From assembly GCA_019117305.1 (NCBI GenBank), contig DWZZ01000027.1, positions 6,529-70,528 on the forward strand: a stretch of DNA of 64,000 bases, read 5' to 3'. The position numbers and the translations under genes are program-made. This document shows positions 10,883 through 36,927 of the stretch, piece by piece; positions within the stretch are counted from its first letter, which is position 1, and each line of letters opens with the position of its first letter. A model generated the notes under the pieces. It did not search any database. It was not told the origin of the DNA and saw nothing but the letters and a program-made list of their open reading frames with translations. The stretch is from Candidatus Mediterraneibacter merdigallinarum (GTDB taxonomy: Bacteria; Bacillota; Clostridia; Lachnospirales; Lachnospiraceae).

Positions 10883-11365
10883 TCAGCCCTTTGCCGATTC
10901 ATTGTCGCCGGGATGCCTCCGCCTTGTGCATATCGCATACAGCCCTGTAATAATCCTTCTGGCCGGAAGAATCCGTATCCACACATGTTCAAAAAACTCC
11001 CACCAGAAGTCCCCCGGCTCCAGCATCCTGCCCTTCCGCTTCACCTTAATAACCCGCGCAAATATCTGATCCCGCCTTAACGGCCCCTCAACCTGAACCT
11101 GCGCGTCGCCCGCCATATAATAGGCGTCTCCCCTTTTTTTGTATATGCGGTGCATCACATACTGTCCGCCGTCCCTCTGATAGAAAACCATATCTCCTCT
11201 GCGCAGCTCTCTGTCCGGTCTGGTGAAATAAATATAATCCCGGTTGTGACAGAGGAATGGCGACATACTGCTCCCTGCGATCAGCATGGAAACCACCTTT
11301 CCTTCTTCGGCAATCTCCCGAAGTACGGATACATATTCTCTTGTATCTACAACTTTCCCGGCCAT
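10883..11365 (-). CDS. S24/S26-family peptidase (Ser-His type, no N-terminal TM anchor)
   Basis: GSSMSPFL, RGDMVFY, YVMHRI, AGDA motifs. Confidence 0.82.
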   Translation of the reverse strand: MAGKVVDTREYVSVLREIAEEGKVVSMLIAGSSMSPFLCHNRDYIYFTRPDRELRRGDMVFYQRDGGQYVMHRIYKKRGDAYYMAGDAQVQVEGPLRRDQIFARVIKVKRKGRMLEPGDFWWEFFEHVWIRILPARRIITGLYAICTRRRHPGDNESAKG

Positions 11366-11426
11366 TCCGGACTCTCCTTTCGCCTCTGCACTTCCCCCGG
11401 CAGAAATATTCCCCCCTGAAATTCTG

Positions 11427-13220
11427 TCAGAAATCCATAGCCATGCGGCTGGATTCTTCTTCGCTGAGTTCCGTTACTTTTGTTTCCATAACACGGTAAA
11501 CTCTCTGGCACAGATTCAGTACACTGGGACGATGTGTAGTTACAATACATGTTTTATTCGGATGCTGCTTTACTATGTTGCGCAGTACCGTCCGTTCTGT
11601 CGTCACATCCAGAGCCGATGTTGCCTCATCCAGAAGCAGCACCGGTGAATTTCTCAGAACAGCTCTTGCAATGGCAATACGCTGGGCCTGTCCTTCTGAA
11701 AGCCCGCGGCCTCTTTCTCCTACATTGCTGTTAATCGTATCCGGCAGCTTCTCTACAAAGTCCCAGGCGCAGGACACTTTCAGGGCTTCGATAATCTCCT
11801 CGTCTGTAGCGTCCTCTTTCACCATGCGCATATTTTCCGCAATTGTGCCGGAAATAATTGTATTTCCCTGAGGAACATAGGCAAAAAGATGCCTGGTTTC
11901 CGCGTTCATCTCTATCGTTTTTCCATCCGACGCACTAAGACTGACTGTGCCGTCCTGGGGACGGATCAGTCCCAGAATCAGACGGATCATTGTAGTCTTT
12001 CCTTCACCGGAAGGGCCTACCAGAGCAACAATTTCCCCCGGATTTGCCTCAAATGCAGATTCTGTAATCACACGGGTTCCCTCTACATAAGAGAAATTCA
12101 CATCTTTCATCCGAACCCGGAATCCGTCTTCCACATACCGGTCCATCTCGCTGCTCTCAGGGATATGAACTTCCCTTGGAAGCTGCACCAGTTCACGGAT
12201 TCTGTGGGCAGATACGGAACTGTTCAGAAATGACGGAATAATGGACACCACATTGCTGAATGCCGACGACAGTTTGCTCCGCTGCTGAAGGAACAATGTC
12301 ATTGTTCCATATGTAATATCATTGGTCCACAGACGGAACAGACAGTATCCGAACGCCAGAAACTGAACCAGAGTTCCCATGACAGACATGAGAATACTGG
12401 TCTTGATGCTGAACATGTTGTACTTCAGACTGATATCCCGGAACTTTCCCTGCCACCAGCGCATTTTCTTACTGTAGTGAGGCGCGATGCCAAAAGACTT
12501 GATCGTATCAAAATTATAGATGGCCTCTACTTCAAATGTCATCAGATCCGAACTCATCTCACGGACTTTCTTGCTGTAGTCCCTCTGTTTTTTAATCATA
12601 AACCGGGACATAAGCAGCATAAACGGCGCGCTTCCCAGAGCGATCACAGCCATGATCCAGTCATAATGCAGAATCACAAAAAACGTGGCTATAAAATTGT
12701 AAATTGCTATTATGATAGTAGGAAGCCAGCTGATGGCATTGCTGCTGACCGTACCGATATCTCCGTTAAAACGGTTCAGAATATCTCCATTGGAATACTG
12801 ATTCAGAGAGAGCCAGTCCGCATCCACAATCTTGTCAAAAATATCCGCCTGAATATCATTGTTAATATCAATGCTCAGTTTTGCGGTGATCCGGCTGATA
12901 ATGCTGCTGAACACAAGACTGAACACTGTGCTTCCTACCATGATAGAAACCATGACCCACAGCCTGCTGGAATCATGCCCGGTAATAATATCAATCATGT
13001 ATTTGCTCGCCACACTGCTGACCAGTCCCATGGAGGTGCTGAAAATACCCAGGATCAGATAAAACGCAATGGCGCCTTTGTATCTGACACTGTAGCTGAA
13101 AATCCACTTCCAGTCGTCTATAATCTCTGCGAAAGTTCCGTCCTTCCATCTGGAAATAAGTATATCCAGAGATTCGAAGGCCGGATTTTTATTTTCATTC
13201 TGCTGATTCTCTTCGTCCAT
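11427..13220 (-). CDS. ABC exporter, fused permease/ATPase
   Basis: TM domain plus GPSGEGKTT, LSEGQAQR, LLLDEATSALD; no C39 peptidase domain. Confidence 0.93.
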   Translation of the reverse strand: MDEENQQNENKNPAFESLDILISRWKDGTFAEIIDDWKWIFSYSVRYKGAIAFYLILGIFSTSMGLVSSVASKYMIDIITGHDSSRLWVMVSIMVGSTVFSLVFSSIISRITAKLSIDINNDIQADIFDKIVDADWLSLNQYSNGDILNRFNGDIGTVSSNAISWLPTIIIAIYNFIATFFVILHYDWIMAVIALGSAPFMLLMSRFMIKKQRDYSKKVREMSSDLMTFEVEAIYNFDTIKSFGIAPHYSKKMRWWQGKFRDISLKYNMFSIKTSILMSVMGTLVQFLAFGYCLFRLWTNDITYGTMTLFLQQRSKLSSAFSNVVSIIPSFLNSSVSAHRIRELVQLPREVHIPESSEMDRYVEDGFRVRMKDVNFSYVEGTRVITESAFEANPGEIVALVGPSGEGKTTMIRLILGLIRPQDGTVSLSASDGKTIEMNAETRHLFAYVPQGNTIISGTIAENMRMVKEDATDEEIIEALKVSCAWDFVEKLPDTINSNVGERGRGLSEGQAQRIAIARAVLRNSPVLLLDEATSALDVTTERTVLRNIVKQHPNKTCIVTTHRPSVLNLCQRVYRVMETKVTELSEEESSRMAMDF

Positions 13221-13348
13221 AATTCACCTCTTTTTCAGACTTTAACACGCTTCCCCGGCAGGATCTGCCGCGGCGAATCCTGCCCGTACAGGCGCGCCGC
13301 GCCCGTTCTGCGAACAATTATACTATTTCTGATTAAAAAAGCAATCGG

Positions 13349-14206
13349 TTAAATTGCCAGAACTTTCTCCAGACACTCTACCGCTTCTCTGGAAATCGTA
13401 CATCCCAGATGAAAGACCGGTACATTTCCCAGGAAATCTTCCATCAGATCCATTATATGGATATGAGCCTCCCTGTTCCATTTATTTACTGTAATCTGGC
13501 TGTACAGCAGCGGAAAAGCCCGGCCGGGAGACAGTCTTTCCGCATGATTCTCCTCTGCCTGGCTCAGCATAACTACCGCCCGGATCGGAACATCCTCGTT
13601 AAAACACACTTCTGACGTACCGCATACCGGCCAGCCCCGGGCCGTCCATCTGCCGTCCATCTTTCCAAGAAGCGCGCGGTCTCCGTTTACTGTCCTGCTT
13701 CCCCGGTATTTTTCCCACAGATTTGCCTGGGTCGTCTTCCCGGTCTCCGATGGCGCGGAAAAAAGAACAGCCTCCCCTTTATATTCCACATAAGCACAGT
13801 GAAGCACCATACTGTCCTTCTTCACCAGCCGCCGCTCCAGCGCAAGCAGAGACGTAAATACAGGATCAATATGCAGTTCTTTGATCTCATCTCTTACAAG
13901 CACAATCTCCGCCCTGTCCTCTGCCACTTCCCGGTAACAGGCATAGGGATCCTTTCGCCCTTTTACGCCGATCAGACGGCTTTCGAAAGTGCCCTCATCT
14001 GTCTTATGACAGAACACCGTCAGGTCAGGCCGCCGGGCAGATACGGTTCCATCCGGCCGGGGAAGCGCATCTGAAACTTCTATACGATAAGTGTACTCCG
14101 GACTGCCTGACGTACATTCAAACTTCATAAAGTTCTCCGGCGGCGTTACTTCCTCCGGACAGCAGAGACGGAATACAAACTCTCCGATCCGAAATAATTT
14201 ATCCAT
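13349..14206 (-). CDS. HPr-kinase-like P-loop kinase (RiPP-cluster type), copy 1
   Basis: VLHCAYV, FSAPSETGKTT, VNGDRALL, GWPVCGTS. Start placed at MDKLF (14206), overlapping the rSAM stop. Confidence 0.75.
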   Translation of the reverse strand: MDKLFRIGEFVFRLCCPEEVTPPENFMKFECTSGSPEYTYRIEVSDALPRPDGTVSARRPDLTVFCHKTDEGTFESRLIGVKGRKDPYACYREVAEDRAEIVLVRDEIKELHIDPVFTSLLALERRLVKKDSMVLHCAYVEYKGEAVLFSAPSETGKTTQANLWEKYRGSRTVNGDRALLGKMDGRWTARGWPVCGTSEVCFNEDVPIRAVVMLSQAEENHAERLSPGRAFPLLYSQITVNKWNREAHIHIMDLMEDFLGNVPVFHLGCTISREAVECLEKVLAI

Positions 14207-15329
14207 TCTCTCTGTTCTCCTGTATCTCTTTTTCCTCTTCCTCAAGCAACCGCAGAGACTCCTTCGCATACCGGCACATGTAGTCAGGAACTCCGGCATA
14301 GCTTCCTGTCTCCAGCAGAGCGCTGGCCGCGCAGGTACGGCACAGATGCCTCACCCGGCAGGTACTGCACTTTGCGTTCAGCAGGATCTTCCATGTCTCC
14401 TCTGTAATATATTTCCAGGCAGCCTCAAATCCTGCTTCAAACACAGAAACTTCCGGTTCGCTCATAACCACGCAGGGACGCATCTGCCCCTGCCAGTTAA
14501 TCGTAAATGAACACCGGCCGGCCATACAGGCCATATGCCCCGGCTTCTCTTCCGCCGGTTCCGGATGCTCTGCTTTTTCTATTGACTGACAGACATATGC
14601 CGGAAAAAGTTCCGGCCCCATCTCTCTCTTCAAAGCATGAATTCTGGCCTGTGCCGCTTCTTCCGGACCCAGCCGGGCCTGCAGATTATAGGGCAGATCC
14701 CGTTCTCTTGTGGCAGGCATCATGTAGGTGTCCACCCGGACAGGAATATCCAGTTCTTCGCCTATATCCAGCAGCTTATCAAGATCATCCCTGTTCGCGC
14801 GGGTAAGACTGCCGCCCACCTTCACGTCCACGCCGTTCTCCCGAAGCAGACGGATACCCTGCAGTGTCTTCTCAAATCCCCCGGGATAATGGCACAGATC
14901 CGCATAAGTCTCTTCGTCCGTCCCGTACAGAGTAATATTCACCCTGCGAGGTTTATGTTTTCCAAAAAACTCAGCCAGATCTTCGTCAATCAGCGTACCA
15001 TTTGTGTTGATCGTCAGAATCATGCCCATCTCTCTCAGGCCAAGGTAGAGCCTTCTGAAATCCGGATACAGGAAAGGCTCTCCTCCGGTCAGCAGGAGGA
15101 ACAGGACGCCGGCTTCCTTCATCTGCCTGCCGATCTCCAGCCACTCATCTGCGGTGCGAAGCCGTCCCTGCCGCTCCATCTCCTCTCTGCTGAGCCGGAC
15201 ATAACACATATCACAGTTCATGTTGCAAAGAGGAAGGAGTTCTATACTTCCATTGGCCGGGGTGCGGGTACGCTTCGCCTGATCGAGAATCATGCGTTCA
15301 ACTGTGGTCGCGCCTTCTAATTGTTCCAT
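14199..15329 (-). CDS. Radical SAM protein with SPASM-like C-terminus, copy 1
   Basis: CNMNCDMC, LTGGEP, TNGTL; C-terminal CMAGRCSFTINWQGQMRPC...CSTCRVRHLCRTC...YMC. Start at MEQLEG (15329) follows an aggag RBS. Confidence 0.92.
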   Translation of the reverse strand: MEQLEGATTVERMILDQAKRTRTPANGSIELLPLCNMNCDMCYVRLSREEMERQGRLRTADEWLEIGRQMKEAGVLFLLLTGGEPFLYPDFRRLYLGLREMGMILTINTNGTLIDEDLAEFFGKHKPRRVNITLYGTDEETYADLCHYPGGFEKTLQGIRLLRENGVDVKVGGSLTRANRDDLDKLLDIGEELDIPVRVDTYMMPATRERDLPYNLQARLGPEEAAQARIHALKREMGPELFPAYVCQSIEKAEHPEPAEEKPGHMACMAGRCSFTINWQGQMRPCVVMSEPEVSVFEAGFEAAWKYITEETWKILLNAKCSTCRVRHLCRTCAASALLETGSYAGVPDYMCRYAKESLRLLEEEEKEIQENRENG

Positions 15330-15357
15330 AGGATGATCTCCTTTCGGGGTAAATGAA

Positions 15358-15386
15358 AATAGACCGGAGGGCTGTTCCGGTCTATT
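15358..15386 (-). terminator. Hairpin/terminator between precursor A and rSAM 1
   Basis: aatagaccgga-N7-tccggtctatt perfect 11-bp stem, followed by ttcattt on the minus strand. Confidence 0.65.
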
Positions 15387-15405
15387 GTAATTATGTAGAT
15401 AAATA

Positions 15406-15810
15406 TTATGATTTTGCTGTTTCCCAAGAATCCTGATCAAGATTTGTAGTACAATGAACATCGGTGCCACCATCAGTCCAGATGATAACAGACGTTTTAG
15501 GATACTCTTTCCATCCACCAAACAATGTCCAATATCCTGTCTCATCAGTTCCGCCATTCTGGATATAATAACCTCTGATAAAATCATCCTGAGTTGAAGC
15601 TTCATGTGTTGCATCACAAGCATGATAATAACGAGCTCTACCTTTTGTTAAATTTGTTCCATCATCAGTGTATACATCGCCTTTTGCACCACCACCAGCA
15701 TCACATTTAAACTTATAAACTGTATTCCAGTCATGACAAGCCGCTACATACTCATTAGCCTCAAACTTCTGCACCTCAGTAAGAGGTCTCTTCCAAACTC
15801 TTCCTTCCAT
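15406..15810 (-). CDS. Putative RiPP precursor A (134 aa)
   Basis: Leader VWKRPLTEVQKFEANEYVAAC, near-identical to precursor B; 4 Cys; ends in Ser (TAKS); lies between PqqD and rSAM genes. Confidence 0.75.
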   Translation of the reverse strand: MEGRVWKRPLTEVQKFEANEYVAACHDWNTVYKFKCDAGGGAKGDVYTDDGTNLTKGRARYYHACDATHEASTQDDFIRGYYIQNGGTDETGYWTLFGGWKEYPKTSVIIWTDGGTDVHCTTNLDQDSWETAKS

Positions 15811-15812
15811 TT

Positions 15813-16085
15813 TTACTCCTCCTTTAATAGACCATACTGTAAATATTCTCTTATGAAATCTTTAATTCCCTGTTCCATTTCACCATCGGGATCGGAATAT
15901 TCTTTCTTCGCTTCAGCAATCACATCTTCCATCGTCCTCGGCTGTTGGAACAGCTGCCACAGAAAGCGGCAGGTTTCATTCAGCGATATCACGCTGTTCT
16001 CAAATATCCCCGCTTCGCCGACAGGCACCAGTACGGCTTCTCCTGCCACATTTCTCAGCAGGAAATCGGGGTTTGCTTTAAACAT
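15813..16085 (-). CDS. PqqD-family RiPP recognition element (RRE), copy 1
   Basis: FLLRNVAGEAVLVP, ISLNETCRFLWQLF, EYS....MEQGIKDFI..L..YGLL; 90 aa from MFKAN. Confidence 0.88.
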   Translation of the reverse strand: MFKANPDFLLRNVAGEAVLVPVGEAGIFENSVISLNETCRFLWQLFQQPRTMEDVIAEAKKEYSDPDGEMEQGIKDFIREYLQYGLLKEE

Positions 16086-16214
16086 CCTGACGCCTTCCTC
16101 TTTTGTATTTTCCGGAAGATGCTCCTGAGAACCGGAACCGGAGAGCATCTCGGATGACTTTTCTTTTCTCTCCAATATATTCCTCCCCTGTTTACCTATC
16201 ATATCTATCTCATT

Positions 16215-16242
16215 ACTATAGCACAACTTATTTGATTGTCAA
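16215..16242 (-). promoter_or_regulatory. Sigma-A-type promoter for PqqD-precursor A-rSAM operon
   Basis: TTGACA-N16-TATAGT with extended TG on the minus strand. Confidence 0.6.
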
Positions 16243-16361
16243 TGATGAAAAACACAGTTTTTTTATAAAAAATTCACAATTTATGGGCATTTTTGAATGT
16301 TTTTACACTTTATTACATATAATTGACATTTTATTACATTTGCATCCAAATCAGGAAACCA

Positions 16362-17477
16362 TTACATTTCAGTCATCTTTTCTATTTCTTTCAAAAGCAG
16401 TTTTTTATACTCTCCCGCATATCTGCACAAATATTCCGGCAGGCCGTCGTAGTTGCCTGTCTCCAGCCAGGCGCTGGCAGCACATGTTTTACATATGGGG
16501 CGAAGCGGGCATTCTGTGCATTTATCATTAATCCTGAATTTCTTCGCCTTTTCGGATATTTCCTGCCAGGCAGCCTCAAATCCGGTTTTAAATACAGACA
16601 CGGTCGGCTCTTCCAGCGTAACGCACGGCCGCATTTCCCCCTGCCAGTTCACGGCAAAAGAACAGTTTCCTGCCATACAGGTGATGCCGGACGGATATCC
16701 GGTTACAGGCTGTTCTGTCTGTTCCAGTTTCTGTTTTACATACACCGGGAACAGCTCCGGATCCATCTCAGCCCGTATTGTCTCCAGTTCCGCCGCGGCC
16801 GCTTCCTCCGGCATCAGTCTGGCCTGTTCTTCAAAGGGCCGCCTTCTCTCATGAAGGCCGGGCAGCATATATGTATCCATATGTACCGGCGCCTCAAGCT
16901 CCCGGCCGATGGCATATATTTTCTCCATATCGCTGCGGTTGGTTCTGGTTACACTGCCGTTGATTTTCACATCCACGCCCCGATCTTTCAGCAGCCGGAT
17001 GGCGTTTTTCGCTTTCTCAAATCCTCCGGGATAATGACAGAGTTTCTCATAGGCGCTGTCGTCTGCCCCGTAAAGGGTGATGTTAATCCGCCGGGGTTTG
17101 TATCTGCCGAAAAAATCTGCCCATCCTTCGTCCAGAAGTGTACCGTTGGTATTGACAGTCAGGATCATTCCCATCTGCCTGAGCTCTACATATAGCTTCT
17201 GGAAATCAGGAAAAAGCAGCGGTTCCCCGCCGGTCAGGAGCAGGAACAGCACTCCGGCCTTCTGCATCTCCCTTCCGAGACCGATCCATTCATCTGCCGT
17301 ATGCAGCCCGCCTTTTGCCTCTGTCTCCCTGGCGCTGAGCCGCACATAACACATATCACAGTTCATATTGCAGAGGGGCAGAAGCTCCAGACTTCCATTA
17401 ATAGGCCGCTGTGCTGCCGACGCCCGGCGCAGCATCCTCTTTTCCATTGTATTCGGTTCCATCTGCATTGGATCCAT
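16362..17477 (-). CDS. Radical SAM protein with SPASM-like C-terminus, copy 2
   Basis: CNMNCDMC, LTGGEP; CMAGNCSFAVNWQGEMRPC...CTECPLRPICKTC...YLC; close paralog of copy 1. Confidence 0.92.
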   Translation of the reverse strand: MDPMQMEPNTMEKRMLRRASAAQRPINGSLELLPLCNMNCDMCYVRLSARETEAKGGLHTADEWIGLGREMQKAGVLFLLLTGGEPLLFPDFQKLYVELRQMGMILTVNTNGTLLDEGWADFFGRYKPRRINITLYGADDSAYEKLCHYPGGFEKAKNAIRLLKDRGVDVKINGSVTRTNRSDMEKIYAIGRELEAPVHMDTYMLPGLHERRRPFEEQARLMPEEAAAAELETIRAEMDPELFPVYVKQKLEQTEQPVTGYPSGITCMAGNCSFAVNWQGEMRPCVTLEEPTVSVFKTGFEAAWQEISEKAKKFRINDKCTECPLRPICKTCAASAWLETGNYDGLPEYLCRYAGEYKKLLLKEIEKMTEM

Positions 17478-17491
17478 ATTTGCTATTCCTC

Positions 17492-17537: not shown

Positions 17538-17574
17538 CTTGTATTTCTTTTATTCCTCTCTATGTAACTAAAAA

Positions 17575-17994
17575 TTATGAGCGGTTCGGATGGCCTTCCG
17601 CTGTGGCAAATACTGTTCCTTTATGATTCCAGGTTCTTCCGTCGGAAGCACTTGTGGTCCAGTAAATTGTATCTCCAATATCAACCGTAGACACGTCTCT
17701 TGTAGAATTATAACGTTCATCCCAATAAATGGTACAACTCAAATCTCCCAGTCCGTCTGTACCTGTTTCAATCATTCGATCCGCAATTGTATCATTATTA
17801 TCATCAAAAATCACCTGATTAGAGGAATTACCACAGTGTGCGATATCATGCGTTACTCCGTTATGATAATCTCCCTCCTGCCATTCATATCTATTTGACC
17901 AGCCCACATCACATTTCACACCCCAGCAAGCCGCTACATACTCATTCGCCTCAAATACCTGTACTTCCGTTCTCGGTTTTACCCATCTTTTCAT
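17575..17994 (-). CDS. Putative RiPP precursor B (139 aa)
   Basis: MKRWVKPRTEVQVFEANEYVAAC leader; GGGAGG RBS before ATG 17994; 4 Cys; ends in Ser (PNRS). Confidence 0.75.
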   Translation of the reverse strand: MKRWVKPRTEVQVFEANEYVAACWGVKCDVGWSNRYEWQEGDYHNGVTHDIAHCGNSSNQVIFDDNNDTIADRMIETGTDGLGDLSCTIYWDERYNSTRDVSTVDIGDTIYWTTSASDGRTWNHKGTVFATAEGHPNRS

Positions 17995-19784: not shown

Positions 19785-19793
19785 CATCGTTTT

Positions 19794-23555: not shown

Positions 23556-23573
23556 ATCCGTTTCATAGCCCTC

Positions 23574-25103: not shown

Positions 25104-25123
25104 TCATTACTTTCCTTCCTCAG

Positions 25124-27688: not shown

Positions 27689-30600
27689 TTACCAGCTGAA
27701 TAATGATTTGAAGAAATCAGTAACCGTATTTACCACTGACTTAATCGCATTGCCCAGTTTTGTAAAGAAGCCTTCATCATTGCTTCCTTCCGGTTCCTCA
27801 GCCTCTGCTTCAGAAGCGCTAAATTCTACGCTTTCCGACTCACCGTATGCCACTTCCACATCACTGTACTCTGCATCGGTCAGTTCATAGCCTTCCGGCA
27901 GGATTCCCTCTGCCACTGTCTGTATATCTGCTGCGGCAAATGTGTGAGTCTCGCCCACTGTACCGTTTGCCGTAAGGACTGTCTCTGCCACAGCATTGCC
28001 GTTGGCATCGACTACGTTTACTGTCAGCGCGGCGTCCGCCGTCTCAACAGTCTCTGTCTCGTCGGCAATACACTGAAGCGCAAACGCCATCGTATCAGCG
28101 TCGATTGTAAACAGTGACGCACCGCCTGCTTCATATACAGGATTTGTCACCTTGATCTTTGTAAGGGCAAGTACGTTCTCGCCTCTATTTTCGATAACAA
28201 TCATGCCATCATTCGGCTCTACTTCATAGTACATATCTACTGTAGAGGACAACGTACTTTCTGGCTGATCATTAATCTGATAGCTCACCGTACCGCTGTT
28301 CAGGCTTCTCATTCCGACTGCCACTTTATCATATGCTGACGCCGTCAGTCTCATGGCAATCGTCTGTCCCGATTTGAGATAAATCTCGTTCTTCGGACCG
28401 TTATTGATCATATCCGCGTCTGCCGTAACCTCGTTTCCAGCCCCGAGAATCACCGCTCCCGAGCCGTTATTCGAAGCATCATAGACCGCGCTGATAATAT
28501 TTTCACCGTACTTGTACCAGTCGTCAATATCTGCCAGATCGTAGGTGCTTCCTGCAATCGTAATATCACGGACTTCCGCTGTAAGAGCCTGGTCTTCCTG
28601 ATCAGCAGCATAAACGCTCTCATATGCATCGCCCTGCGTATGATATACGCGGAAGCCGTCCAGTGAGATCTCACCGCTGTTCACAATAATCTTCACTGTG
28701 TACGTTCCGGCTGTAAGATCCTTATAGCTGAATACCGGCGTGTTGTAGTAATTTCCATTATTTTCTTCCAGCCAGTTATTTGCGGTGTCTACATATCCCA
28801 GTTTGAGAAGAGTTCCGTCGGTTCCCTCGCCCTCGTACAGCCACAGGCTCATGCTGCCGGATGACTGTGTCGTCAGTGCGTAGATATCCAGACCTGTACC
28901 GTTGAATGTAAATGTTGCTGTGCCATTCTTTGTACTGCTTACCGCAGCAGTATTGTTGCTGTTTCCATTTGCAGAAGCATACAGATCGTCATAACCATAC
29001 AGATCAACTGTCTCATCATCTGCGACGCTTACTGTCTGGTTTTCGGTTACGGCTGAACCAGGTGACCAGCTGCCGTCATAGGAGGCAAATCCTTCCTCAT
29101 AGTATACGCTTGATGCCGGGTAGACTGTGAATGTATAAACAGCGCCCCGCTCATTTGTGATTCGGACGGTATCCGCTTCTGTAAGTACAGCGTTCGGTGT
29201 ATATGTTACTTCCATTCCGTTTGTCTGAACGGTTCCGAAGTTTGCGCTGCCGCTCACAAAATTATAACTTGTTTTTCCTGTAAAGTCGACTGTGATCGGT
29301 GAACCGAAGTCGATGATATAGTCGTCCGGATCGAAGGTAAGGACGGATACCTCGGCAACCGCCTCAGCCTCTGCCGTCAGTTCACCGGTACTGTAAGCCG
29401 CCCGATATCCATAAGAAAGACTTACTGTATTCGTGATCATACTATCCAGATCAGAATCCCGGACGGTATACTCGGCTTCATACAGAAAATCTCTCGCAGG
29501 TGCCGGATCCCCGCTCGTTCCCAGATCACTGGTAATGTTCTTCGATGTCGTTCCATCTGAAAATTCCGCTCCGCTCAGCAACTCTCGCAACTGAGCATTA
29601 CTATACACTATGCCGTATTCCGTCTCATAGCGGTGTACGGTAATGTCATAAACAAGTGTATCGCCTGGGTAAATCTGCATACCTTCTGTATAATCTACAG
29701 TCTCTCCACTATGGATAACTGACTTAATAGATTTTTCCAGGCTGGGCAGTCTCTCTGAAATAACATTGATAATTGCCTGACAGCTATTTGTTGCATCAGT
29801 ACCTCTGGTAAACCAGAAACCGCCATCAGCGCCTAACTCTTTAGCGCCCTGCAGCATAGCAATGATTTCGTTATCTGTATAAAGATGAGTATCCTCGTTA
29901 TTCAACGATCCTTTATTTTGGAAGAACGTCGTCTGACGCATATTGCTGTAATCCTGAATTGCATACCAATTCGTCTGATCCAAATTATTAGCCGCACTCA
30001 TATAGGTTAATGCATAATTTTCGTCCACCGGTGCGCCAAAAAATGTCATAGCCCAAGCCGCTTCTGTACTGATGTAAATAGCGGTATCTGCAAAAACCTC
30101 TTTATATTCGCCTTCATCATTCTGTACATAGTACAATCTGGAGTCTTGGATCTCATTAACATAAATTTCTACAATTCGTTCCCCATTATCCGAAGGTCTA
30201 GAATTTTCATATATAGGTTCGATATCCAGAACCGTAACTGTCGCAGAATGACGTCCTACAATATTTCCTTCTTCATCTGTAATCTCTGCGATAACCACAG
30301 TTTCTCCCGGGGTTACTCCGGTTACTGTACCATTCTGACCTACTGTGGCAATACTAGCATTCTCACTTTTCCATGTCACATTATAACCATCTGCACCATT
30401 GAGATTCAGATCATAAGATATACCTGGTGTTAAAATCAGATGGGAAACCGTTTTTCCCCTGCTGTATGTTGTATCTCCAGTATTGGATACAAAACTCAGA
30501 TCTCCAATATTACTGAAATCTCCATCCGGAATTTCTGTAACTGTAATATTATACGTTCCTGCTCCTACAACAACAGTAGTTGTTCCTGCCGCCACACCTG

Positions 30601-33331
30601 TGATCGTCATAGTATTACCGTCAATCACTGCTGTCGCAAAAGTTTCATCCGGTCCCTGAGTCATTGTTCCGTCTACTGTGACTGATATACTCTGTCCCAC
30701 TGCTACAGAAAGCTCTTCCGTAAACGGTTTTCTCTGCAATGCGGCAATTGCTTCTGCAATTCTCTGTGCTGCCTGGTCAATAGTATTCTGTGCTGCCTGC
30801 GCTTCACTCTCAGAAGAATACTCAGAAGAAGATAAGCTCTCTGCAGCTTCTACCGCATCCTGTAAGACGTTCCAGGAATCTGTTGTATAGTTATCTGCTG
30901 TCAAATCATTTGCAGCATTGATCTGTTCCTGCAGCTTGCTGAGGTCGGTAGACCAGGAGGGATCTTCGGTGGTTTTACGGTAGAGGGAGACTGTGGATGC
31001 AGTATTGGATGGTTCAAACCCTTCTCCCATTCCCATAAAACCACTATTATAATGTAAATATCTATTAGATCCATAAATAGTATATCTTCCATTACTACCG
31101 TCCAACAAACAGATTTGTTCCGTTGTATCCAGTGTTTTTGATTCTACACTCCATCCGCTTCTTTCATAATGTAAATAAATATATGCATTTGTATTTCTGA
31201 TAGTAAACCGATCACCTGAACCCTCGAATGTCCAGAGAAGATGGTCATCATTGCTTTCGTTTACATTTGTGACTTCATTTCCGCTGACTGTTACATCTCG
31301 GTCGCCTGTAGAAGTCTCTCCGTCCGTATTCTCCAGAGCATGCCCGTCATAAACGATCAGGTATTGTCCTCCATTATCAATTCCATCCGTATCAAGCACA
31401 TAGCTCGTTCCGCCGGGATTCTGGGTGATCGATCCGGTATATGCTTCATCCACACCACTCACAGTTACCGTCAGTTCATATTGGCTTCCGTCTTCCACGC
31501 TGCGGCTGTTTGTCTGCACAGTCGCTGTGATTGTCGCTGTTCCTGCACCAACCGGTGTAACAGTAACACTGCTGCCGTCAGCTTTTGCCGTCGCTACAGT
31601 CTCACTGCTTGTCGTGACTGTAAGATACTGGCTATCAGATAAGCCGCGGAATTCCACAGTCTTTTCTCTGTCTGTAGCAGCAAAATTCAGGCTGTTGATA
31701 AGCGTTCCGTCCTCCGATACAAATCCCGGATCCGGATCGCCGATCTGCGCGTCTTTTGCCAGATTCTCAATCTGGAAATTCGTATACTGGATACTTGCGC
31801 TGCCGTTTTCATACAGGAGTCCCACAGAACCATCACTCAGCTCCGTCAGGCAGGAATACTGGAATGTTCCATTCGTAACAGCGGTTGCAGAAAAACTGTT
31901 GAAGTCCATGGTTCCATCATCATTCACAAGTCCCACAAAAATTTTCCCTGCACTTCTGCTTCCCCAGCTACTATCAGTCGGGCAGGAAAGAAGAATCGCT
32001 TCCTTGCCATTGATTGTCTGGGAATATTTTAATGCTGAAATCTGGCAATTGGAGTTATTGCTGACTTCCGTCTGCATAATGCTTCCCCAGATATATCCCT
32101 CATCAGCATTTCCTGTGGCATCCACATAGCAGATCTGGTTACTGCCGTTTCGGAAAAACATACGGATTGTACCATCATTCAGCTCTACCAGCTGGTTCTC
32201 ACTGGACCAGGTGCCTCCTGTAGCATTTTCTGTTCTTTCCCATGTCTCGCCGCCGTCTGTGGAATAGATAAAGCTGCTCCTCTGGGAGCTATCAGTTCCA
32301 TTCCATTCGTAAGCAGAAAATAGAATCGTACCATCACTGGTCACAATACCGGTTCCCGGTCCCACACCGTAAAACTGCTCATCGTCTGCCTTCACATTGA
32401 TCAGAGTCGGAGCTGACCATGTCGCACCCTTATCTGTGGATTTTGTCAGATACAGATAGGAAGTCTTCACTACCTGATAAGGAGAATCTGAAAAGAACAG
32501 ATTGCTGACTTCTACATCTCCCTGGTACAGGTTGAAATACTCATCCACCGTGTAGTCTTCTACAGCATTTCCATCAGCGCCAAAGATCTGTGCACGGCCA
32601 TTCTCAAATTCGCCCAGATAATAGCTGTAATCGCTGCTGCCGGACTGGGCCAGTTTCAGCTGTCCCTGCTCATCAAATGCCGCTGCCGCCTCAGGCTTCT
32701 GATTGGATGAGTTCAGCGCCACACCGCCCGGGAACAGATCTGCCAGCATATAGATTGTACTGCCGTCTGTAGCCAAAGCCGGGTCAATAAATGTTGCAGA
32801 TTCTTTTACATAGGCATTTCCATTATCTCCCAGATAATTGGCAAATGTATAGTTCCAGTTTGCTCCATTATCAGATGAACGGGAAACTATCGTATCCAGT
32901 CCGCCCGCATCTGCTGAAGTATTCCATCTTGCATCCGCTGCCGCAATGATAGTGCCGTCATCCAGCGTTACTATTGCGGGGATGCGGAAGTTCTGGCTTC
33001 CTCCTGTCCCTGCTGCAAAGGGCTGTCCGCTTGTTGTTCCGTCAGCCGGCTTGTCTGACACATTACTGCGGACCGCCGGCTCAGACTCATCGCTTTGAAC
33101 AGCCGCGCCATCGTCCTCCGAAGTAGCAGCTTCTTCTGTATCCTGTCCCTCACTGCTGTCAGGAACATCAGCCGTGTTGTCTTCTGTGCCCGTCTCAGTC
33201 TCTGTCTGGATATCCTGAGTCTGGATGTCACTCTCAGAGTCTGTTCCCACAGCAAATGTCTGCATGCCCATACTCAGAACCATCGTCAGAGTCAGCAGCA
33301 GCGCGAGAAAACGCTTTTTCGTCTTCTTCAT
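27689..33331 (-). CDS. Large secreted multidomain GH33 exo-alpha-sialidase (Ig-like/Big, FIVAR and unknown domains), 1880 aa
   Basis: Signal peptide; NFRIPAI; Asp boxes SSDNGANW, STDKGATW, STDGGETW; SENQLVE; QYSCL; FIVAR YTTDSWNVLQDAV; Big_2-like VTWKSENASIATV. Confidence 0.88.
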   Translation of the reverse strand: MKKTKKRFLALLLTLTMVLSMGMQTFAVGTDSESDIQTQDIQTETETGTEDNTADVPDSSEGQDTEEAATSEDDGAAVQSDESEPAVRSNVSDKPADGTTSGQPFAAGTGGSQNFRIPAIVTLDDGTIIAAADARWNTSADAGGLDTIVSRSSDNGANWNYTFANYLGDNGNAYVKESATFIDPALATDGSTIYMLADLFPGGVALNSSNQKPEAAAAFDEQGQLKLAQSGSSDYSYYLGEFENGRAQIFGADGNAVEDYTVDEYFNLYQGDVEVSNLFFSDSPYQVVKTSYLYLTKSTDKGATWSAPTLINVKADDEQFYGVGPGTGIVTSDGTILFSAYEWNGTDSSQRSSFIYSTDGGETWERTENATGGTWSSENQLVELNDGTIRMFFRNGSNQICYVDATGNADEGYIWGSIMQTEVSNNSNCQISALKYSQTINGKEAILLSCPTDSSWGSRSAGKIFVGLVNDDGTMDFNSFSATAVTNGTFQYSCLTELSDGSVGLLYENGSASIQYTNFQIENLAKDAQIGDPDPGFVSEDGTLINSLNFAATDREKTVEFRGLSDSQYLTVTTSSETVATAKADGSSVTVTPVGAGTATITATVQTNSRSVEDGSQYELTVTVSGVDEAYTGSITQNPGGTSYVLDTDGIDNGGQYLIVYDGHALENTDGETSTGDRDVTVSGNEVTNVNESNDDHLLWTFEGSGDRFTIRNTNAYIYLHYERSGWSVESKTLDTTEQICLLDGSNGRYTIYGSNRYLHYNSGFMGMGEGFEPSNTASTVSLYRKTTEDPSWSTDLSKLQEQINAANDLTADNYTTDSWNVLQDAVEAAESLSSSEYSSESEAQAAQNTIDQAAQRIAEAIAALQRKPFTEELSVAVGQSISVTVDGTMTQGPDETFATAVIDGNTMTITGVAAGTTTVVVGAGTYNITVTEIPDGDFSNIGDLSFVSNTGDTTYSRGKTVSHLILTPGISYDLNLNGADGYNVTWKSENASIATVGQNGTVTGVTPGETVVIAEITDEEGNIVGRHSATVTVLDIEPIYENSRPSDNGERIVEIYVNEIQDSRLYYVQNDEGEYKEVFADTAIYISTEAAWAMTFFGAPVDENYALTYMSAANNLDQTNWYAIQDYSNMRQTTFFQNKGSLNNEDTHLYTDNEIIAMLQGAKELGADGGFWFTRGTDATNSCQAIINVISERLPSLEKSIKSVIHSGETVDYTEGMQIYPGDTLVYDITVHRYETEYGIVYSNAQLRELLSGAEFSDGTTSKNITSDLGTSGDPAPARDFLYEAEYTVRDSDLDSMITNTVSLSYGYRAAYSTGELTAEAEAVAEVSVLTFDPDDYIIDFGSPITVDFTGKTSYNFVSGSANFGTVQTNGMEVTYTPNAVLTEADTVRITNERGAVYTFTVYPASSVYYEEGFASYDGSWSPGSAVTENQTVSVADDETVDLYGYDDLYASANGNSNNTAAVSSTKNGTATFTFNGTGLDIYALTTQSSGSMSLWLYEGEGTDGTLLKLGYVDTANNWLEENNGNYYNTPVFSYKDLTAGTYTVKIIVNSGEISLDGFRVYHTQGDAYESVYAADQEDQALTAEVRDITIAGSTYDLADIDDWYKYGENIISAVYDASNNGSGAVILGAGNEVTADADMINNGPKNEIYLKSGQTIAMRLTASAYDKVAVGMRSLNSGTVSYQINDQPESTLSSTVDMYYEVEPNDGMIVIENRGENVLALTKIKVTNPVYEAGGASLFTIDADTMAFALQCIADETETVETADAALTVNVVDANGNAVAETVLTANGTVGETHTFAAADIQTVAEGILPEGYELTDAEYSDVEVAYGESESVEFSASEAEAEEPEGSNDEGFFTKLGNAIKSVVNTVTDFFKSLFSW

Positions 33332-33391
33332 CTCTGTTTGTTCCTCCTTACTTGAAATAGTTTTATATAAAAGGTAGTATTATCTACACTT

Positions 33392-34513
33392 TTACAGGTT
33401 CAACCGGAAAGACGCCTCCTTCCGAAGTGCATTCACTATCCGGCATAAATATCCGGGAGTCTTTTCAAATTCTCCCGTTTCCGCAAACGCCATTGCGGCG
33501 CATGCATGACAGATCTTCTGGCTTTCACACCGGGAGCATGTTCCCGACAGTCTGATCTGTCCCGTCAATTCGGTTAATTCTTTCCATGCTTCACTGAAAT
33601 TTCTTTTCCGCACCGATACGCCCGGCCGCTCCATCATCCCGCAGGGACGCATCTCACCGTGCCAGGTCACCCAGAATGTTGCCCTTCCTGCCCGGCATCT
33701 GACAGTCCCGTCGGGAACTGCCTCCTGACATTCCTCCAGACTCACAGGCATACTGCCCTGCAGTATCTGACGGGCAAATGGTTTCACCGCATCCTCTCCA
33801 TACTGGAGCCTGCGGATCTCAAACATATAATGCGCGGTCTCTTCCGGTGTAAAGCGGTTATTTTTCCCGATATTTTCCTCACCCCGGCGTATAGCCGGAA
33901 ACATATAGGATGCGATTTCCAGAATCAGTCCCCGCTCATCTGCAAACCGGATCATTTCTTCCAGATCGCATACATTATATGGAGTCAGACTGCAGTTCAG
34001 CTTTACGGAAATTCCCGCTTTCTGCAGGCCTTCAATCGCATGTTTCACCCGCTCATAACTGTCTGCCCTTCCGCACAGTTTTTCATAAGTATCCCCTGAA
34101 GCCCCGTACAGAGTAATATTTATCCTGCATGGAGGCCTGTCCTTCAGCCAGCGGATCACATCATCATCGATCAATGTCCCGTTGGTGTTGATCGAGAGTA
34201 TAAATCCCATGCCTGCCAGTTTCTCATACAGCTCACGGAATCCCGGATGGAGAAACGGCTCGCCGCCTGTCAGCAGCAGATAGAGCATTCCCTGCCCCTT
34301 CGCTTCTTCTGCAAGCTTCAGCCACTCGTCATTGCTCATCATAATAAGCCCGGATTCCCTGACCTGCTGTGCCGTCATATGCACGTAACACATCCGGCAG
34401 TTAAAATTGCAAAGAGGCGACAATTCAAAAGTCCCGTTGATCGGTGTGTGCTCTCTGGCCGCTTTTGCAAATAAATATGAAGTTACCTGAGGTTCTACGT
34501 AAGTCCCTTTCAT
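33392..34513 (-). CDS. Radical SAM protein with SPASM-like C-terminus, copy 3
   Basis: CNFNCRMC, LTGGEP; CRAGRATFWVTWHGEMRPC...CSRCESQKICHAC...YLC. Start MKGTY (34513) is coupled to the kinase stop. Confidence 0.92.
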   Translation of the reverse strand: MKGTYVEPQVTSYLFAKAAREHTPINGTFELSPLCNFNCRMCYVHMTAQQVRESGLIMMSNDEWLKLAEEAKGQGMLYLLLTGGEPFLHPGFRELYEKLAGMGFILSINTNGTLIDDDVIRWLKDRPPCRINITLYGASGDTYEKLCGRADSYERVKHAIEGLQKAGISVKLNCSLTPYNVCDLEEMIRFADERGLILEIASYMFPAIRRGEENIGKNNRFTPEETAHYMFEIRRLQYGEDAVKPFARQILQGSMPVSLEECQEAVPDGTVRCRAGRATFWVTWHGEMRPCGMMERPGVSVRKRNFSEAWKELTELTGQIRLSGTCSRCESQKICHACAAMAFAETGEFEKTPGYLCRIVNALRKEASFRLNL

Positions 34514-35379
34514 CTGTCCATTCCCAGCTCTTTCCTGACATTTTCTACGGCACGGATATCCGGCGGACATATCATCTCATATATCGGAATTGCCGAAATC
34601 ATATCCTTAATCACGGACGACACGGTATTTACCGCATAGGCATTCCACTGATGGACGGTCACATTTCTGTATACTTCACGAAACGCTTTTGTCCCTGCCA
34701 TTCTCTGTATACTTATCTCATCTTCTCCGCCGCGTTTTACAGACATCACAGCCCGGATCGGGACATTTTTATTTACATAATATCCGGATGAGCCGGCATA
34801 GGGCGATCCATACGCTTTCCAGATACCGCAGGAATCTCTGTTTACAAAAGCTCTGTCACCGTTTATAATCTCTGCCCCGGCGTATTGCCGCCAGAGATCG
34901 GCTCGTGTAGATTTTCCCGCGCCTGACGGTCCCATAAACAGAATTCCTTCGCCCGATACATCAATCAGGGCCGCGTGCAGAATCACGGTTTCCAGTCCGG
35001 CATATATATTATCTATGCCAATCCATCCAAACAGCTGTTCCATCTTCTGAAACTGCCGCAGGCCACGTTCCAGATAACAGATCGTCTCCCGGCAGCCTTC
35101 ATAGTCCAGATATGCTTTTGCGAACATCTCGCCGCACAGTCCCTCATGGAATACCTGAACAATCCCATCTGACTCTTCATGCGCCGAGATCCTGCTGTCA
35201 TAGTCATTCGAAATATTCGGCGTCTGTGGATGTGACAGATGATCTGTCTTTTCAAAACATATTGTAAAATCAGGTTTATTCCCTTCTGTTTTGAACTGCT
35301 CGATCTTATCCGATATTTCAGGCTCAAAATCTGCAGATATTTCCAGGATCCGTCCTGCTATGTAATACTGTCTTTTCAT
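34510..35379 (-). CDS. HPr-kinase-like P-loop kinase, copy 2
   Basis: ILHAALI, GPSGAGKST, INGDRA, YGSPYAGSS. Confidence 0.75.
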   Translation of the reverse strand: MKRQYYIAGRILEISADFEPEISDKIEQFKTEGNKPDFTICFEKTDHLSHPQTPNISNDYDSRISAHEESDGIVQVFHEGLCGEMFAKAYLDYEGCRETICYLERGLRQFQKMEQLFGWIGIDNIYAGLETVILHAALIDVSGEGILFMGPSGAGKSTRADLWRQYAGAEIINGDRAFVNRDSCGIWKAYGSPYAGSSGYYVNKNVPIRAVMSVKRGGEDEISIQRMAGTKAFREVYRNVTVHQWNAYAVNTVSSVIKDMISAIPIYEMICPPDIRAVENVRKELGMDR

Positions 35380-35385
35380 GATTTA

Positions 35386-35643
35386 TCAGGATATGAAGAC
35401 AAATGTATTTGACCCGCCCTCGGTGTAACAGTACATATCTTCGCCGTCAACGCTACAAGCACCTGCCAGATCGGTATAGAATAAATCCGGCGGCGCTATC
35501 GATGAAGAACCTGGTTTAGGATCTGCATCACATCCGTTACGTATAGCCTGATTACTCACCATAAGGTTCTGGCAGGCGGCAATATGCTGGCTCAGTTCAA
35601 AGTTCTCAATGACTGCCAGCGGTTTTTGGTATACCTTTTTCAT
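35386..35643 (-). CDS. Putative RiPP precursor C (85 aa)
   Basis: MKKVYQKPLAVIENFELSQHIAAC leader; 4 Cys; ends in Ser (VFIS); AGGAGG RBS. Confidence 0.75.
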   Translation of the reverse strand: MKKVYQKPLAVIENFELSQHIAACQNLMVSNQAIRNGCDADPKPGSSSIAPPDLFYTDLAGACSVDGEDMYCYTEGGSNTFVFIS

Positions 35644-35659
35644 CTTTGCCCTCCTTGTC

Positions 35660-36361
35660 TTAATCTATTTCAACACCGACCGCCTCCGGAGTTCCGAGCA
35701 GACATTTACTGTCTTCATACTCAAAACTCTCTCCGCCAGCCAGTCCTGAAACCGGAATTTCATAGGATAATCCTCCGATATAGGAATCCCCTGTCGTACA
35801 GCGGTAAATGACCACTGCATTGTCAATCTGCTGTTCCGTAATATTTGTAATGATAAGTTTGGATCCGTCTGCAGTGATCTGTACAGCATCCTCCCTCATC
35901 GAAATGTCGCTCATCTGTGTCGTACATTCAATTTCCCGGCAGACTGCCTGTCCGTCATAACTCTGACCGGCAAGTTCAAACGCTACCGTCTCACTTCCTG
36001 TCGGAAGATCTCTCACCAGAAAACTGTATTCCGTCTCATCGTCTATCCTTACTTTTACTTCTGCTTCATCTAAATACTGATCAGATATGTTTCTGACCTG
36101 AAGCCCTGCTATATCCTCGCCATCCGCATTTTCGGCATCCACATTCGGTCCTGTAAACTGGATAAGGGCCGTGATCTGTAAATTGCCGTCTTCTGAAGTG
36201 TACGGGAAATCAATTCCACTGTCTGTCGCCTCCCCACCTTCAGTTTTATTCTGTAAATAGCGGTTATATATAACAGCCGCTGCAAATACTGCGATAACTG
36301 CTATAAGAATTAGAATAAAAATCTGCTTTTTTCTTTTATCTTTTTTCTTTCTCATTATCAT
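35660..36361 (-). CDS. Membrane-anchored hypothetical protein
   Basis: Basic N-terminus, single TM, acidic beta-rich extracellular region. Confidence 0.7.
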   Translation of the reverse strand: MIMRKKKDKRKKQIFILILIAVIAVFAAAVIYNRYLQNKTEGGEATDSGIDFPYTSEDGNLQITALIQFTGPNVDAENADGEDIAGLQVRNISDQYLDEAEVKVRIDDETEYSFLVRDLPTGSETVAFELAGQSYDGQAVCREIECTTQMSDISMREDAVQITADGSKLIITNITEQQIDNAVVIYRCTTGDSYIGGLSYEIPVSGLAGGESFEYEDSKCLLGTPEAVGVEID

Positions 36362-36457
36362 GGTATTCCCTTTTTTAAAATGAATATAATCAGTCAGATA
36401 AAGTGTCCTTTATCTGACCCGGTTTACAATTTATGGCATACTTTTGAAATCTTACTT

Positions 36458-36502
36458 ATTATACCTACTGTTCCTTTTCATCGCCTCATACAAAAGTATT
36501 AC
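36458..36502 (-). promoter_or_regulatory. Activator-dependent promoter: TATAAT plus CTCATAC-N4-GTATTAC box
   Basis: -10 at 36458-36463; box at 36485-36502; flanks closely match the 26029-26080 region. Confidence 0.6.
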
Positions 36503-36651
36503 ATTTTATCCATTTTTTCGTCAGCGTTTCATAAACAGCACAGAAACCAAATATAAGAGCATGTATTTTCTCTTACTTCTCTGCGCACAAAAAAAGAACG
36601 GCCATCTCTCATCCGGATGATCCGTCCCTTTAATCTTCTATATACAATTAT

Positions 36652-36927
36652 TTACACTTCTTCTTTTTCCAGCACTCCGCCCTTTTCCAGTGTATCCAGA
36701 AATTCCCGGATATCCTCTTTTGCCGTTTCCTCATCCACATCATAAATCTCAAGAATTCCCTTCGTCAGATCTTCAAATGTTACATCTGACTGCAGCATCT
36801 TCCACAATTCTGATCCCACTTCATTTACCGTTATCAGCCCGTTAAATGTCAATGCCGTCTTCCCGGTCGGAATTATTACATAATCTCCCGCGATCTCCCG
36901 CAGGACAAACTCTTTCTGTATTTTCAT
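36652..36927 (-). CDS. PqqD-family RiPP recognition element, copy 2
   Basis: MKIQKEFVLREIAGDYVIIPTG...NEVGSELWKML...YDVDEETAKEDIREFLDTL. Confidence 0.9.
   Translation of the reverse strand: MKIQKEFVLREIAGDYVIIPTGKTALTFNGLITVNEVGSELWKMLQSDVTFEDLTKGILEIYDVDEETAKEDIREFLDTLEKGGVLEKEEV

Follow-up and report, generated by a model that had tools for sequence, protein, structure and literature searches.

We analysed a window of 64,000 nucleotides (64 kb) from contig DWZZ01000027.1 of Candidatus Mediterraneibacter merdigallinarum, a stretch in which three small proteins, A, B and C, are encoded amid radical S-adenosylmethionine (rSAM) enzymes in a Lachnospiraceae capsule locus. Our interpretation, which we regard as evenly balanced, is that the locus encodes an rSAM variant of the phosphopeptide pathways for linear polyphosphorylated peptides (LPP) and paeninodin, that its products are likely to be components of the cell surface, and that C binds a conserved region, here called CD, of a giant secreted protein. 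C is almost always encoded beside such a giant surface protein, and the peptides may therefore be parts of the cell surface and not antibiotics.

A preliminary description of this DNA had listed three precursors, three rSAM/SPASM enzymes, two stand-alone PqqD-like recognition elements (RREs) for RiPPs (ribosomally synthesized peptides modified after translation), two HPrK-like kinases, a nucleotidyltransferase (NTase), an S26 peptidase and an ABC exporter, all co-oriented. Every one of these genes was found, on the minus strand (Table 1), and the cassette genes are single copy, with no duplicates in the rest of the assembly (2.4 Mb, 89% complete). The genes had been read as one capsule-linked pathway. 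The capsule link stood, as described below, but by its gene content the locus is built from two modules, not one. Module I combines A/B-type precursors of ~125–155 aa with rSAM1/2, Kin1, an RRE, the S26 peptidase, the NTase and the ABC exporter, and module II combines a C-type precursor of ~75–100 aa with protein U, a kinase, rSAM3, an RRE and the giant secreted CD protein. The giant CD protein, U and two immunoglobulin (Ig)-repeat membrane proteins, which that description did not name, are conserved members of the system. As to the reported interdigitation with capsule genes, four Wzz-BY kinases, cpsB and LCP are present; BY1, BY2, cpsB and LCP lie just outside the interval 10883–36927.

Precursor proteins with a constant leader and terminal serine

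A, B and C have in common the leader W/Y-x-x-P-x3-V-x2-F-E-x4-V/I-A-A-C and a terminal Ser, and all three are preceded by Shine-Dalgarno-like sequences. A scan of all open reading frames (ORFs) of the genome for the motif M..[WY]xxP-x6-F..C with a length of 60–200 aa and a Ser end gave three matches, as compared to no match in nine shuffles and one match in a tenth. With looser criteria, a single spurious ORF of 33 aa came up in addition to A, B and C. A joint A/B/C profile scored 1995 of 2170 candidates as homologues (90% clustering), with a terminal Ser in 118 of the best 120. The C-type profile scored 215 of 323 candidates; among the best 120, 119 end in Ser, 117 have exactly four Cys and 112 keep a fixed Tyr-to-Cys spacing of 20.

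Between the conserved leader and the terminal Ser the cores are variable, and they are hypervariable among homologues. In contigs from close strains, the cores of B (17592–17922) and C (35451–35558) have been exchanged with both flanks kept, as expected for precursors with constant handles. The precursors are acidic, non-hydrophobic and without signal peptide, and no NCBIfam family matched them at E ≤ 1. The model of B (mean pLDDT 79) shows a folded beta core at residues about 21–130, flanked by a disordered leader and Ser tail. No solved fold matched this model (best Z 4.0; no Foldseek match at E ≤ 0.001), which does not in itself prove a new fold, and an atlas search with B led to unnamed clusters (0.94). 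The V/I-A-A-C sequence resembles a lipobox, but a lipoprotein reading was rejected: the maximum 15-residue hydropathy is just 0.35–0.73, and there is no hydrophobic h-region.

Covariation was analysed in 35 dereplicated C loci by partial correlation with 999 permutations, or 499 in subsets. Leader distance tracks the rSAM (partial r 0.32, 0/999), and the tracking holds in all four subsets (partial r 0.32–0.52, 0/499 each). The conserved leader and terminal Ser, the variable cores, this tracking and the match of rSAM clades to precursor type described below bear out the earlier suggestion of an RRE-dependent, RiPP-type pathway.

C-type precursors and the CD region of giant surface proteins

The proteins encoded beside C are secreted, 1000–3800 aa long, and carry unrelated cargo (a sialidase here; VWA, GH43, LamG and PA14 elsewhere). 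One region of about 470–530 aa, CD, is common to them, and the cargo upstream of it varies. A Pfam search of 30 CD members gave just three weak matches and no CBM family. In the CD model (mean pLDDT 77), an Ig domain is combined with a pair of jelly rolls, of which the first has a CBM35/CBM6-type fold (3nqh, Z 14.5, rmsd 1.8, 112 aligned; CBM35 4qb1, Z 11.3), a similarity that does not in itself establish function. Foldseek with the whole of CD reached a TM of about 0.2 at most and the atlas search gave leads under 0.9 only. CD appears to be an undescribed domain that gut Clostridia carry on surface proteins with sialidase, GH43 and VWA cargo. The possibility of an isopeptide (Lys/Asn/Glu) in CD was dropped, as the conserved acidic and basic residues seem to fit the repeated jelly-roll ends.

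Of 301 genomes from the same family (one per genus), 11 yielded CD and precisely these 11 also yielded C-type precursors; every one of them is rSAM-positive. Seven of the 11, this genome included, had supplied seed sequences; G007, G037, G045 and G297 lay outside the seeds. For 43 CD genes in genome loci, most of which were retrieved via the rSAM, C was no more than 60 bp away in 30 cases and no more than 5.3 kb away in 41, the other two being near contig ends. In an rSAM-independent test, 80 metagenome loci were retrieved by CD alone, and nine were dropped (<400 bp downstream or an open end). C followed the CD gene directly in 70 of the 71 informative contigs. U, kinase, rSAM and RRE were each present in 45 of 46 long loci from this set, and S26 in 8. 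A class-wide sample of other genomes yielded neither partner (CD 0/389, C 0/388, with one or two genomes unscored), a result that is concordant and adds no positive pairs. By gene neighbourhood, module II is tied much more tightly to the giant surface protein than to the capsule genes.

In most CD proteins the C-terminus is a short amphipathic tail rich in Trp/Phe (27689–27770 here; also L042, L045, L056, L063 and L186–L265), possibly an undescribed sorting signal; others have SLH, LPXTG-like or other anchors.

The distance between C cores tracks that between CD regions (partial r 0.37, 0/999; best with the CBM35-like roll, 0.40); in the 24 loci that have CD directly upstream, r was 0.47. Several results weigh against a C–CD contact and its proposed role at the surface. 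Core–CD tracking fell to r 0.08 where CD is not directly upstream (n = 11, this window included), the core there tracking the rSAM instead, and to r 0.15 (44/499) after strict dereplication (n = 23). The signal was thus lost in subsets, and we therefore counted it as weak support. Moreover, the metagenome CD set comprises 43 clusters at 80%, mostly from one clade, and no fusion of a C core to a longer protein, CD included, was found among 6171 candidates, which is a weak test. BY, Ig, NTase and ABC genes occurred in 0/46 long metagenome CD loci within the fetched 6-kb flanks, and BY genes in 6 of 28 long GTDB module II loci. Many CD proteins already have SLH, LPXTG-like or amphipathic anchors, and the CBM35-like roll, as modelled, could bind glycan directly.

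The last point leads to an alternative that we consider unlikely, in which CD is a lectin for the surface polysaccharide, or only for the sugar on the phosphoserine of the peptide, and C acts in glycan assembly or display via U with no contact to CD. The CBM35/CBM6-like roll (Z 11–14.5), the presence of U in nearly all long loci and the limited robustness of the core–CD covariation fit this alternative, as does the tracking of U by the C tail in the 11 non-adjacent loci (r 0.36, 3/499). The C core, however, does not track U overall (r −0.14), the gene that directly follows CD is that for C, and the additional CD genes of G045, G228 and G007 come with a C of their own.

Association with polysaccharide genes

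Two Ig-BY-BY sets are present in the window, one behind each module, and in genome G130 the two orthologous sets have likewise stayed with their respective modules. The Wzz/BY-associated Ig marker was found in 35 of the 301 genomes: 24 of the 27 with rSAM2 relatives (E ≤ 1e-50), as compared to 11 of the 274 others. Five of these 11 carry a distant cassette, one has kinases, and five have no cassette kinase. These five, and the three rSAM genomes without Ig marker, count against a fixed coupling of peptide and polysaccharide. Of 12 genomes inspected, 8 have module I adjoining an Ig-BY-BY set, in some cases with no glycosyltransferases nearby. The gene association between cassette and polysaccharide appears strong but, because of the five marker-positive genomes without cassette kinase, not obligate, and kin genomes are not independent.

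By analogy, attachment to or priming of the surface polysaccharide by the peptides is plausible. In Actinomyces oris, LcpA-GspA represents an LCP-mediated phospho-glycosylation of a protein (PMC6381275), a precedent for phospho-linked glycan on protein for which no sequence or fold relationship to the present system is shown. Separately, LCP and sortase genes lie side by side in L165, L166, L169, L172, L181, L035 and L061, mostly adjoining Ig-BY-BY-cpsB and in some cases in genomes without cassette kinase. Such pairs might provide another means of anchoring, similar in outline to LcpA/GspA/SrtA.

The peptides could also be matured as proposed and then secreted as free bacteriocins or signals, with the capsule genes and giant proteins merely co-regulated neighbours. 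This is improbable in our view, although capsule modules without cassette kinase do exist, hypervariable cores are also seen in conflict systems, and LPP and paeninodin are described as patchy in distribution and unsettled in role in the LPP report (PMC13381572). A free product does not account for the concordance of CD and C in 11/11 genomes or their adjacency in the metagenome contigs while the cargo changes; the precursors are acidic and non-hydrophobic, and no immunity-type gene recurs in the loci inspected.

Radical SAM enzymes and a fourth substrate type

In a quick maximum-likelihood tree of 118 rSAMs, the A/B-linked enzymes form one clade (SH-aLRT 100) with subclades rSAM1+A and rSAM2+B (99 each), and rSAM3 is placed among the C-linked enzymes. 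Clades thus correspond to precursor type. The CxxxCxxC motif is intact and seven SPASM Cys are almost invariant, while the eighth is variable (Cys in 12/19 A/B-clade, 4/44 C-type and 0/29 D-type enzymes).

The D-type enzymes are a further clade of 29 rows (SH-aLRT 100). A first reading of this distant clade (L101–L129) as precursor-less was rejected when clustering revealed another small gene, D, in the order rSAM-D-kinase in 27 of 29 loci, the remaining two ending at contig edges. The enzyme set was therefore not found commonly without a small substrate-like gene, an absence that would have spoken against the preliminary description. The D-type product has 111–150 aa, one conserved Cys near its end and a W/G-rich middle, and the cassette reads RRE-rSAM-D-kinase-ABC-Ig-BY-BY-cpsB, usually behind a two-component system (L101–L129, L159, L161, L167, L173, L174, L182 and L184; for example L102:11010-11405). 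Since Cys is the sole feature common to all four substrate types, we infer thioether cross-linking: there is an even chance that the cognate rSAM modifies the core cysteines, most likely in this manner. That the substrate of a sister clade has a single Cys, no YxxP and mostly no terminal Ser is a point on the other side.

Sacti- and ranthipeptide maturases (AlbA, CteB and PapB) provide the mechanistic background, and likewise combine a Cys-rich substrate, an RRE and SPASM domains with seven conserved Cys. Unlike them, the present system has stand-alone RREs, kinase and NTase tailoring and protein-sized cores, and matches to PapB, AlbA and StsB are weak and below cut-off. Alternatively, the Cys could be metal or disulfide ligands of a folded mini-protein, with the rSAM acting elsewhere (on aromatic or His residues as cross-links, on the Cys at the new N-terminus or on the Ser at the end). 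Folding of B is predicted even in the absence of cross-links, His-Cys motifs and Trp/Tyr are conserved in A and B, and the eighth SPASM Cys of most A/B-clade enzymes may close the open iron site. We nevertheless hold this to be quite improbable, given that conserved Cys are the one feature common to A, B, C and D substrates, that the eighth Cys is mostly missing in C-type and D-type enzymes, and that the Asp of anSME is absent. A formylglycine (anSME) reading was rejected on the latter ground: all 92 enzymes counted have V, G, S or I in the column of this Asp, which follows the AuxI Cys.

With 1995 substrate homologues at 90% clustering, this rSAM/SPASM family is large and is predicted to act on protein-sized substrates. 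Two module II loci (L061 and L064) come from assemblies labelled Collinsella and Bacteroidaceae; their rSAMs differ very little from one another and fall within the Clostridia, suggesting mis-binning or recent transfer. Genome G503, of the same genus, has two related kinases (G503:C2:12110-12637, G503:C7:16378-17160), and neither CD nor a C-type precursor was found in it; cassette content therefore varies within the genus.

Leader peptidase, kinases and nucleotidyltransferase

The catalytic motifs of both kinases (His, Walker A and NGD), the NTase and the S26 peptidase are intact. The peptidase matches TIGR02228 (E 4.9e-6, below cut-off) and PF00717, and its S33-H72 spacing equals that of S29-H68 in LppS. 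No meaningful sequence relative of U or the NTase was found in the PDB. In the LPP pathway, the SpI peptidase LppS is described to remove the leader only with the RRE (LppB) present, a precedent from experiment for the leader removal by S26 that had been proposed here, and the kinase LppK to polyphosphorylate one Ser (PMC13381572).

For the NTase, the preliminary description had predicted nucleotidylation (+NMP, nucleoside monophosphate), against which the precedent speaks. PsmN of the pseudomycoidin pathway, with its DxD motif, is reported to be required for one or two hexoses (+162, +324) on the C-terminal phosphoserine, although its authors could not exclude an indirect role (PMC6993621). 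As PsmN, the only tested NTase of this kind, gave +162 hexose, we prefer by analogy a hexose on phosphoserine as the likelier product. That the NTase leaves NMP on the phosphoserine, the nucleotidylated peptide being the end product or an activated donor to the polysaccharide, is very improbable given those masses, even if Pfam places the enzyme, with DxD intact, among nucleotidyltransferases and LCPs can phospho-transfer to proteins (PMC6381275).

Comparison with known systems

The nearest published set is lppA-K-B-S-D-N of Paenibacillus alginolyticus (Popov et al. 2026, PMC13381572), as far as family models, residue spacing and a weak PDB search with the RRE can indicate. As described in that paper, LPP loci have an SpI-like peptidase, a stand-alone RRE, a kinase resembling HprK, an NTP transferase, an MsbA-like exporter, no cyclase, a capsule-locus setting, a [Y/W]xxP leader and 1–3 precursors of 35–200 aa, all as here. 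The LPP leader consensus, however, is YxxPxVLxHQxIxFETxxS, which the W/YxxPxxxVxxFExxxxVAAC leaders do not match, and the phosphorylated Ser of LPP is core position 3, whereas the conserved Ser here is the last residue. The LPP core set as described has no cross-linking enzyme and yields a linear product, as compared to three rSAM/SPASM enzymes and Cys-containing cores here; "Radical SAM" does not occur in the main text of the paper. A further difference is the presence here of giant CD proteins, of U and of dedicated Ig-BY-BY sets. The same paper places clostridial S26/RRE pairs that look similar by eye within its clusters 4, 9 and 20, which are non-LPP and to which it assigns no precursor. 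Because leader, Ser position and rSAMs differ, we regard the present system as a distinct variant.

Paeninodin and pseudomycoidin lasso peptides (PadeK, PsmK, PsmN) are reported with a WxxP leader like A and B, a C-terminal Ser, an HprK kinase, a DxD NTP transferase, an ABC exporter and a capsule neighbourhood (PMC6993621). A lasso reading was rejected, as neither a macrolactam synthase nor a B2 peptidase was matched: Asn_synthase (PF00733) and Transglut_core3 (PF13471) gave no match in the 89%-complete genome, in agreement with the preliminary description. Moreover, cores here are 60–115 aa long with Cys as their first residue, and for B a folded state is predicted, unlike the paeninodin-type lasso peptides described. 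SynChlorMet cassettes (TIGR04248-04251) also have paired rSAM/SPASM enzymes, PqqD and an ScmC-like kinase, but scores here are far below cut-off (ScmC, 32.6 vs 125; ScmE, 88 vs 400). The system would thus work like LPP and paeninodin-type pathways and is, on these comparisons, a member of neither, nor of SynChlorMet.

The statement that no characterised example existed needs to be narrowed. The set of kinase, RRE, SpI peptidase, NTase and ABC exporter in capsule loci is already published as LPP, and what is new is limited to the version with rSAM, Cys and terminal Ser. A literature search covering sources other than subscription journals and bioRxiv supplements found no paper describing this version or the CD partner, and a term search of the RRE-Finder paper gave no hit.

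Proposed pathway

The steps of the pathway, from leader binding to export, were inferred from the LPP and pseudomycoidin precedents. The RRE would very probably bind the W/YxxP leader, the three small proteins being the substrates. Once the rSAM has acted on the core, the kinase would probably phosphorylate the terminal Ser, and the NTase would, on a slight balance of probability, add a sugar to the Ser phosphate or enable its addition. The S26 peptidase is likely to cut the leader. Signal-peptidase-type cleavage follows a −3/−1 small-residue rule, and a site at or near V/I-A-A|C, before the first Cys, is a little short of an even proposition. The ABC pump would probably export the product. 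C has perhaps an even chance of binding CD outside the cell, judging from gene order and covariation, whereas A and B would be larger folded mini-proteins with the same Ser handle and no CD partner of their own. On present sequence data, all three products probably belong to the cell surface, C as the partner of CD.

The least supported step, which we propose tentatively and by analogy, is an extension of the Ser-P-sugar end by the Wzz/BY-controlled polysaccharide, or its coupling to that polymer, through which the peptide would connect glycan with a cargo protein or with the wall. The complete assembly, in which a cross-linked RiPP mini-protein with a phosphoserine-linked glycan, primed by the NTase and extended by or coupled to the Wzz/BY/LCP machinery, docks on the CD of giant proteins, is doubtful. 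All steps are predictions from sequence, models and precedent; a point against the pathway is that the LPP enzyme LppN showed no activity in a heterologous host (PMC13381572).

If true, interchangeable enzymes and adhesins would be tied to the capsule, and the tether would be a new way to build a Gram-positive surface, a peptide-and-glycan counterpart of cohesin-dockerin or sortase anchoring. In cohesin-dockerin systems a small module attaches diverse cargo to the surface of the cell. A relationship to these in sequence or fold is not shown, and the putative linker here is a ribosomal peptide with its own maturases. Two things that LPP and paeninodin do not offer are added by the locus, a candidate partner that is both specific and conserved and polysaccharide co-polymerase sets of its own, and they make a structural surface role testable. 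The LPP authors themselves describe the role of phosphorylated capsule-locus RiPPs as unsettled (PMC13381572).

Gene inventory and neighbouring genes

Table 1. Features of the two modules and adjoining genes, in positions of the 64-kb window
Feature	Position	Strand	Description	Evidence
LCP	4957-6123	-		
cpsB-Ig1-BY2-BY1-LCP set	4957..10724	-	behind module I, ahead of capsule synthesis genes	
Wzz-BY kinases (four)	6136-7689, 7637-9079, 22179-23555, 23574-25103	-		
Ig-repeat membrane proteins (two)	9085-9948, 25124-25918	-		
cpsB	9945-10724	-		
S24/S26 peptidase	10883..11365	-	SpI-like; no strong membrane anchor	invariant S33, H72, D87
ABC exporter	11427..13220	-	MsbA-like; no peptidase-domain match	family models
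Kin1	13349..14206	-	kinase of HPrK/ScmC type with His, Walker A and NGD motif	TIGR04249 E 5e-8, below cut-off
rSAM1/SPASM	14199..15329	-	clade paired with A-type precursors	SH-aLRT 99
Hairpin	15386-15358	-	11 bp, directly after A	pattern match only
Precursor A	15406..15810	-	134 aa; core with Cys and His; C-terminus ETAKS; WKRP..FEANEYVAA|C as leader (about nt 15739-15810)	
RRE1	15813..16085	-	stand-alone PqqD/RRE, 90 aa; 2 bp upstream of A	PF05402 E 2e-11
Extended promoter	16242-16215	-	near consensus, 11 of 12 plus TG; before RRE1-A	pattern match only
rSAM2/SPASM	16362..17477	-	clade paired with B-type precursors	SH-aLRT 99
Precursor B	17575..17994	-	139 aa; same leader type as A; predicted folded beta core; C-terminus HPNRS	
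NTP_transf_5	18274..19521	-	PsmN/LppN-like; invariant D123-x-D125	PF14907 E 2e-54
LuxR regulator	19794..22172	-	MalT-like; recurs in cassette loci (L032, L042, L052, L053, L150)	
Ig2-BY4-BY3 set	22179..25918	-	Ig-repeat membrane protein and two fused Wzz/tyrosine kinases, behind module II	
Giant secreted protein	27689..33331	-	1880 aa, with signal peptide, BNR cargo of sialidase type, Ig/FIVAR, CD region and an amphipathic tail at the C-terminus	
CD region	27953..29353	-	conserved unit of ~470-530 aa, modelled as one Ig domain plus a pair of jelly rolls, first CBM35/CBM6-like	
rSAM3/SPASM	33392..34513	-	seven SPASM Cys; occurs with C-type precursors	
Kin2	34510..35379	-	HPrK-like kinase of module II	PF07475 E 4e-5
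Precursor C	35386..35643	-	85 aa; YxKP leader, four conserved Cys, CY..F-x-S end	
U	35660..36361	-	membrane-anchored extracellular protein, module II	no family above cut-off
RRE2	36652..36927	-	stand-alone PqqD/RRE, 91 aa	PF05402 E 1e-15; best PDB match TbiB1 5v1u, E 6.6e-5
Metallophosphoesterase	37081..37953	-	recurs in module-I loci (also L032, L034, L036, L158)	

The promoter before RRE1-A and the hairpin behind A could, by their sequence patterns, lead to an excess of A transcript. Metatranscriptome contigs from four studies match the genes for B and C, those for the enzymes and a portion of the giant gene outside CD; as contigs only, without a silent-stretch control, they do not show transcription or its level. 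The metallophosphoesterase is a possible phosphate-editing enzyme.

Between the giant protein and Ig2 lies a gene for a secreted GDSL/SGNH esterase (26182-27486), possibly a polysaccharide acetyl-editing enzyme, of which one homologue adjoins module II in L070. Another large surface protein (40573-45063), with LamG, metallophosphoesterase, FIVAR and a sortase-type tail, has no similarity to CD proteins. At 959-2755, a priming phosphoglycosyltransferase is fused to a GT4 glycosyltransferase; genome G203 encodes the two as separate ORFs (L033:2321-4154).

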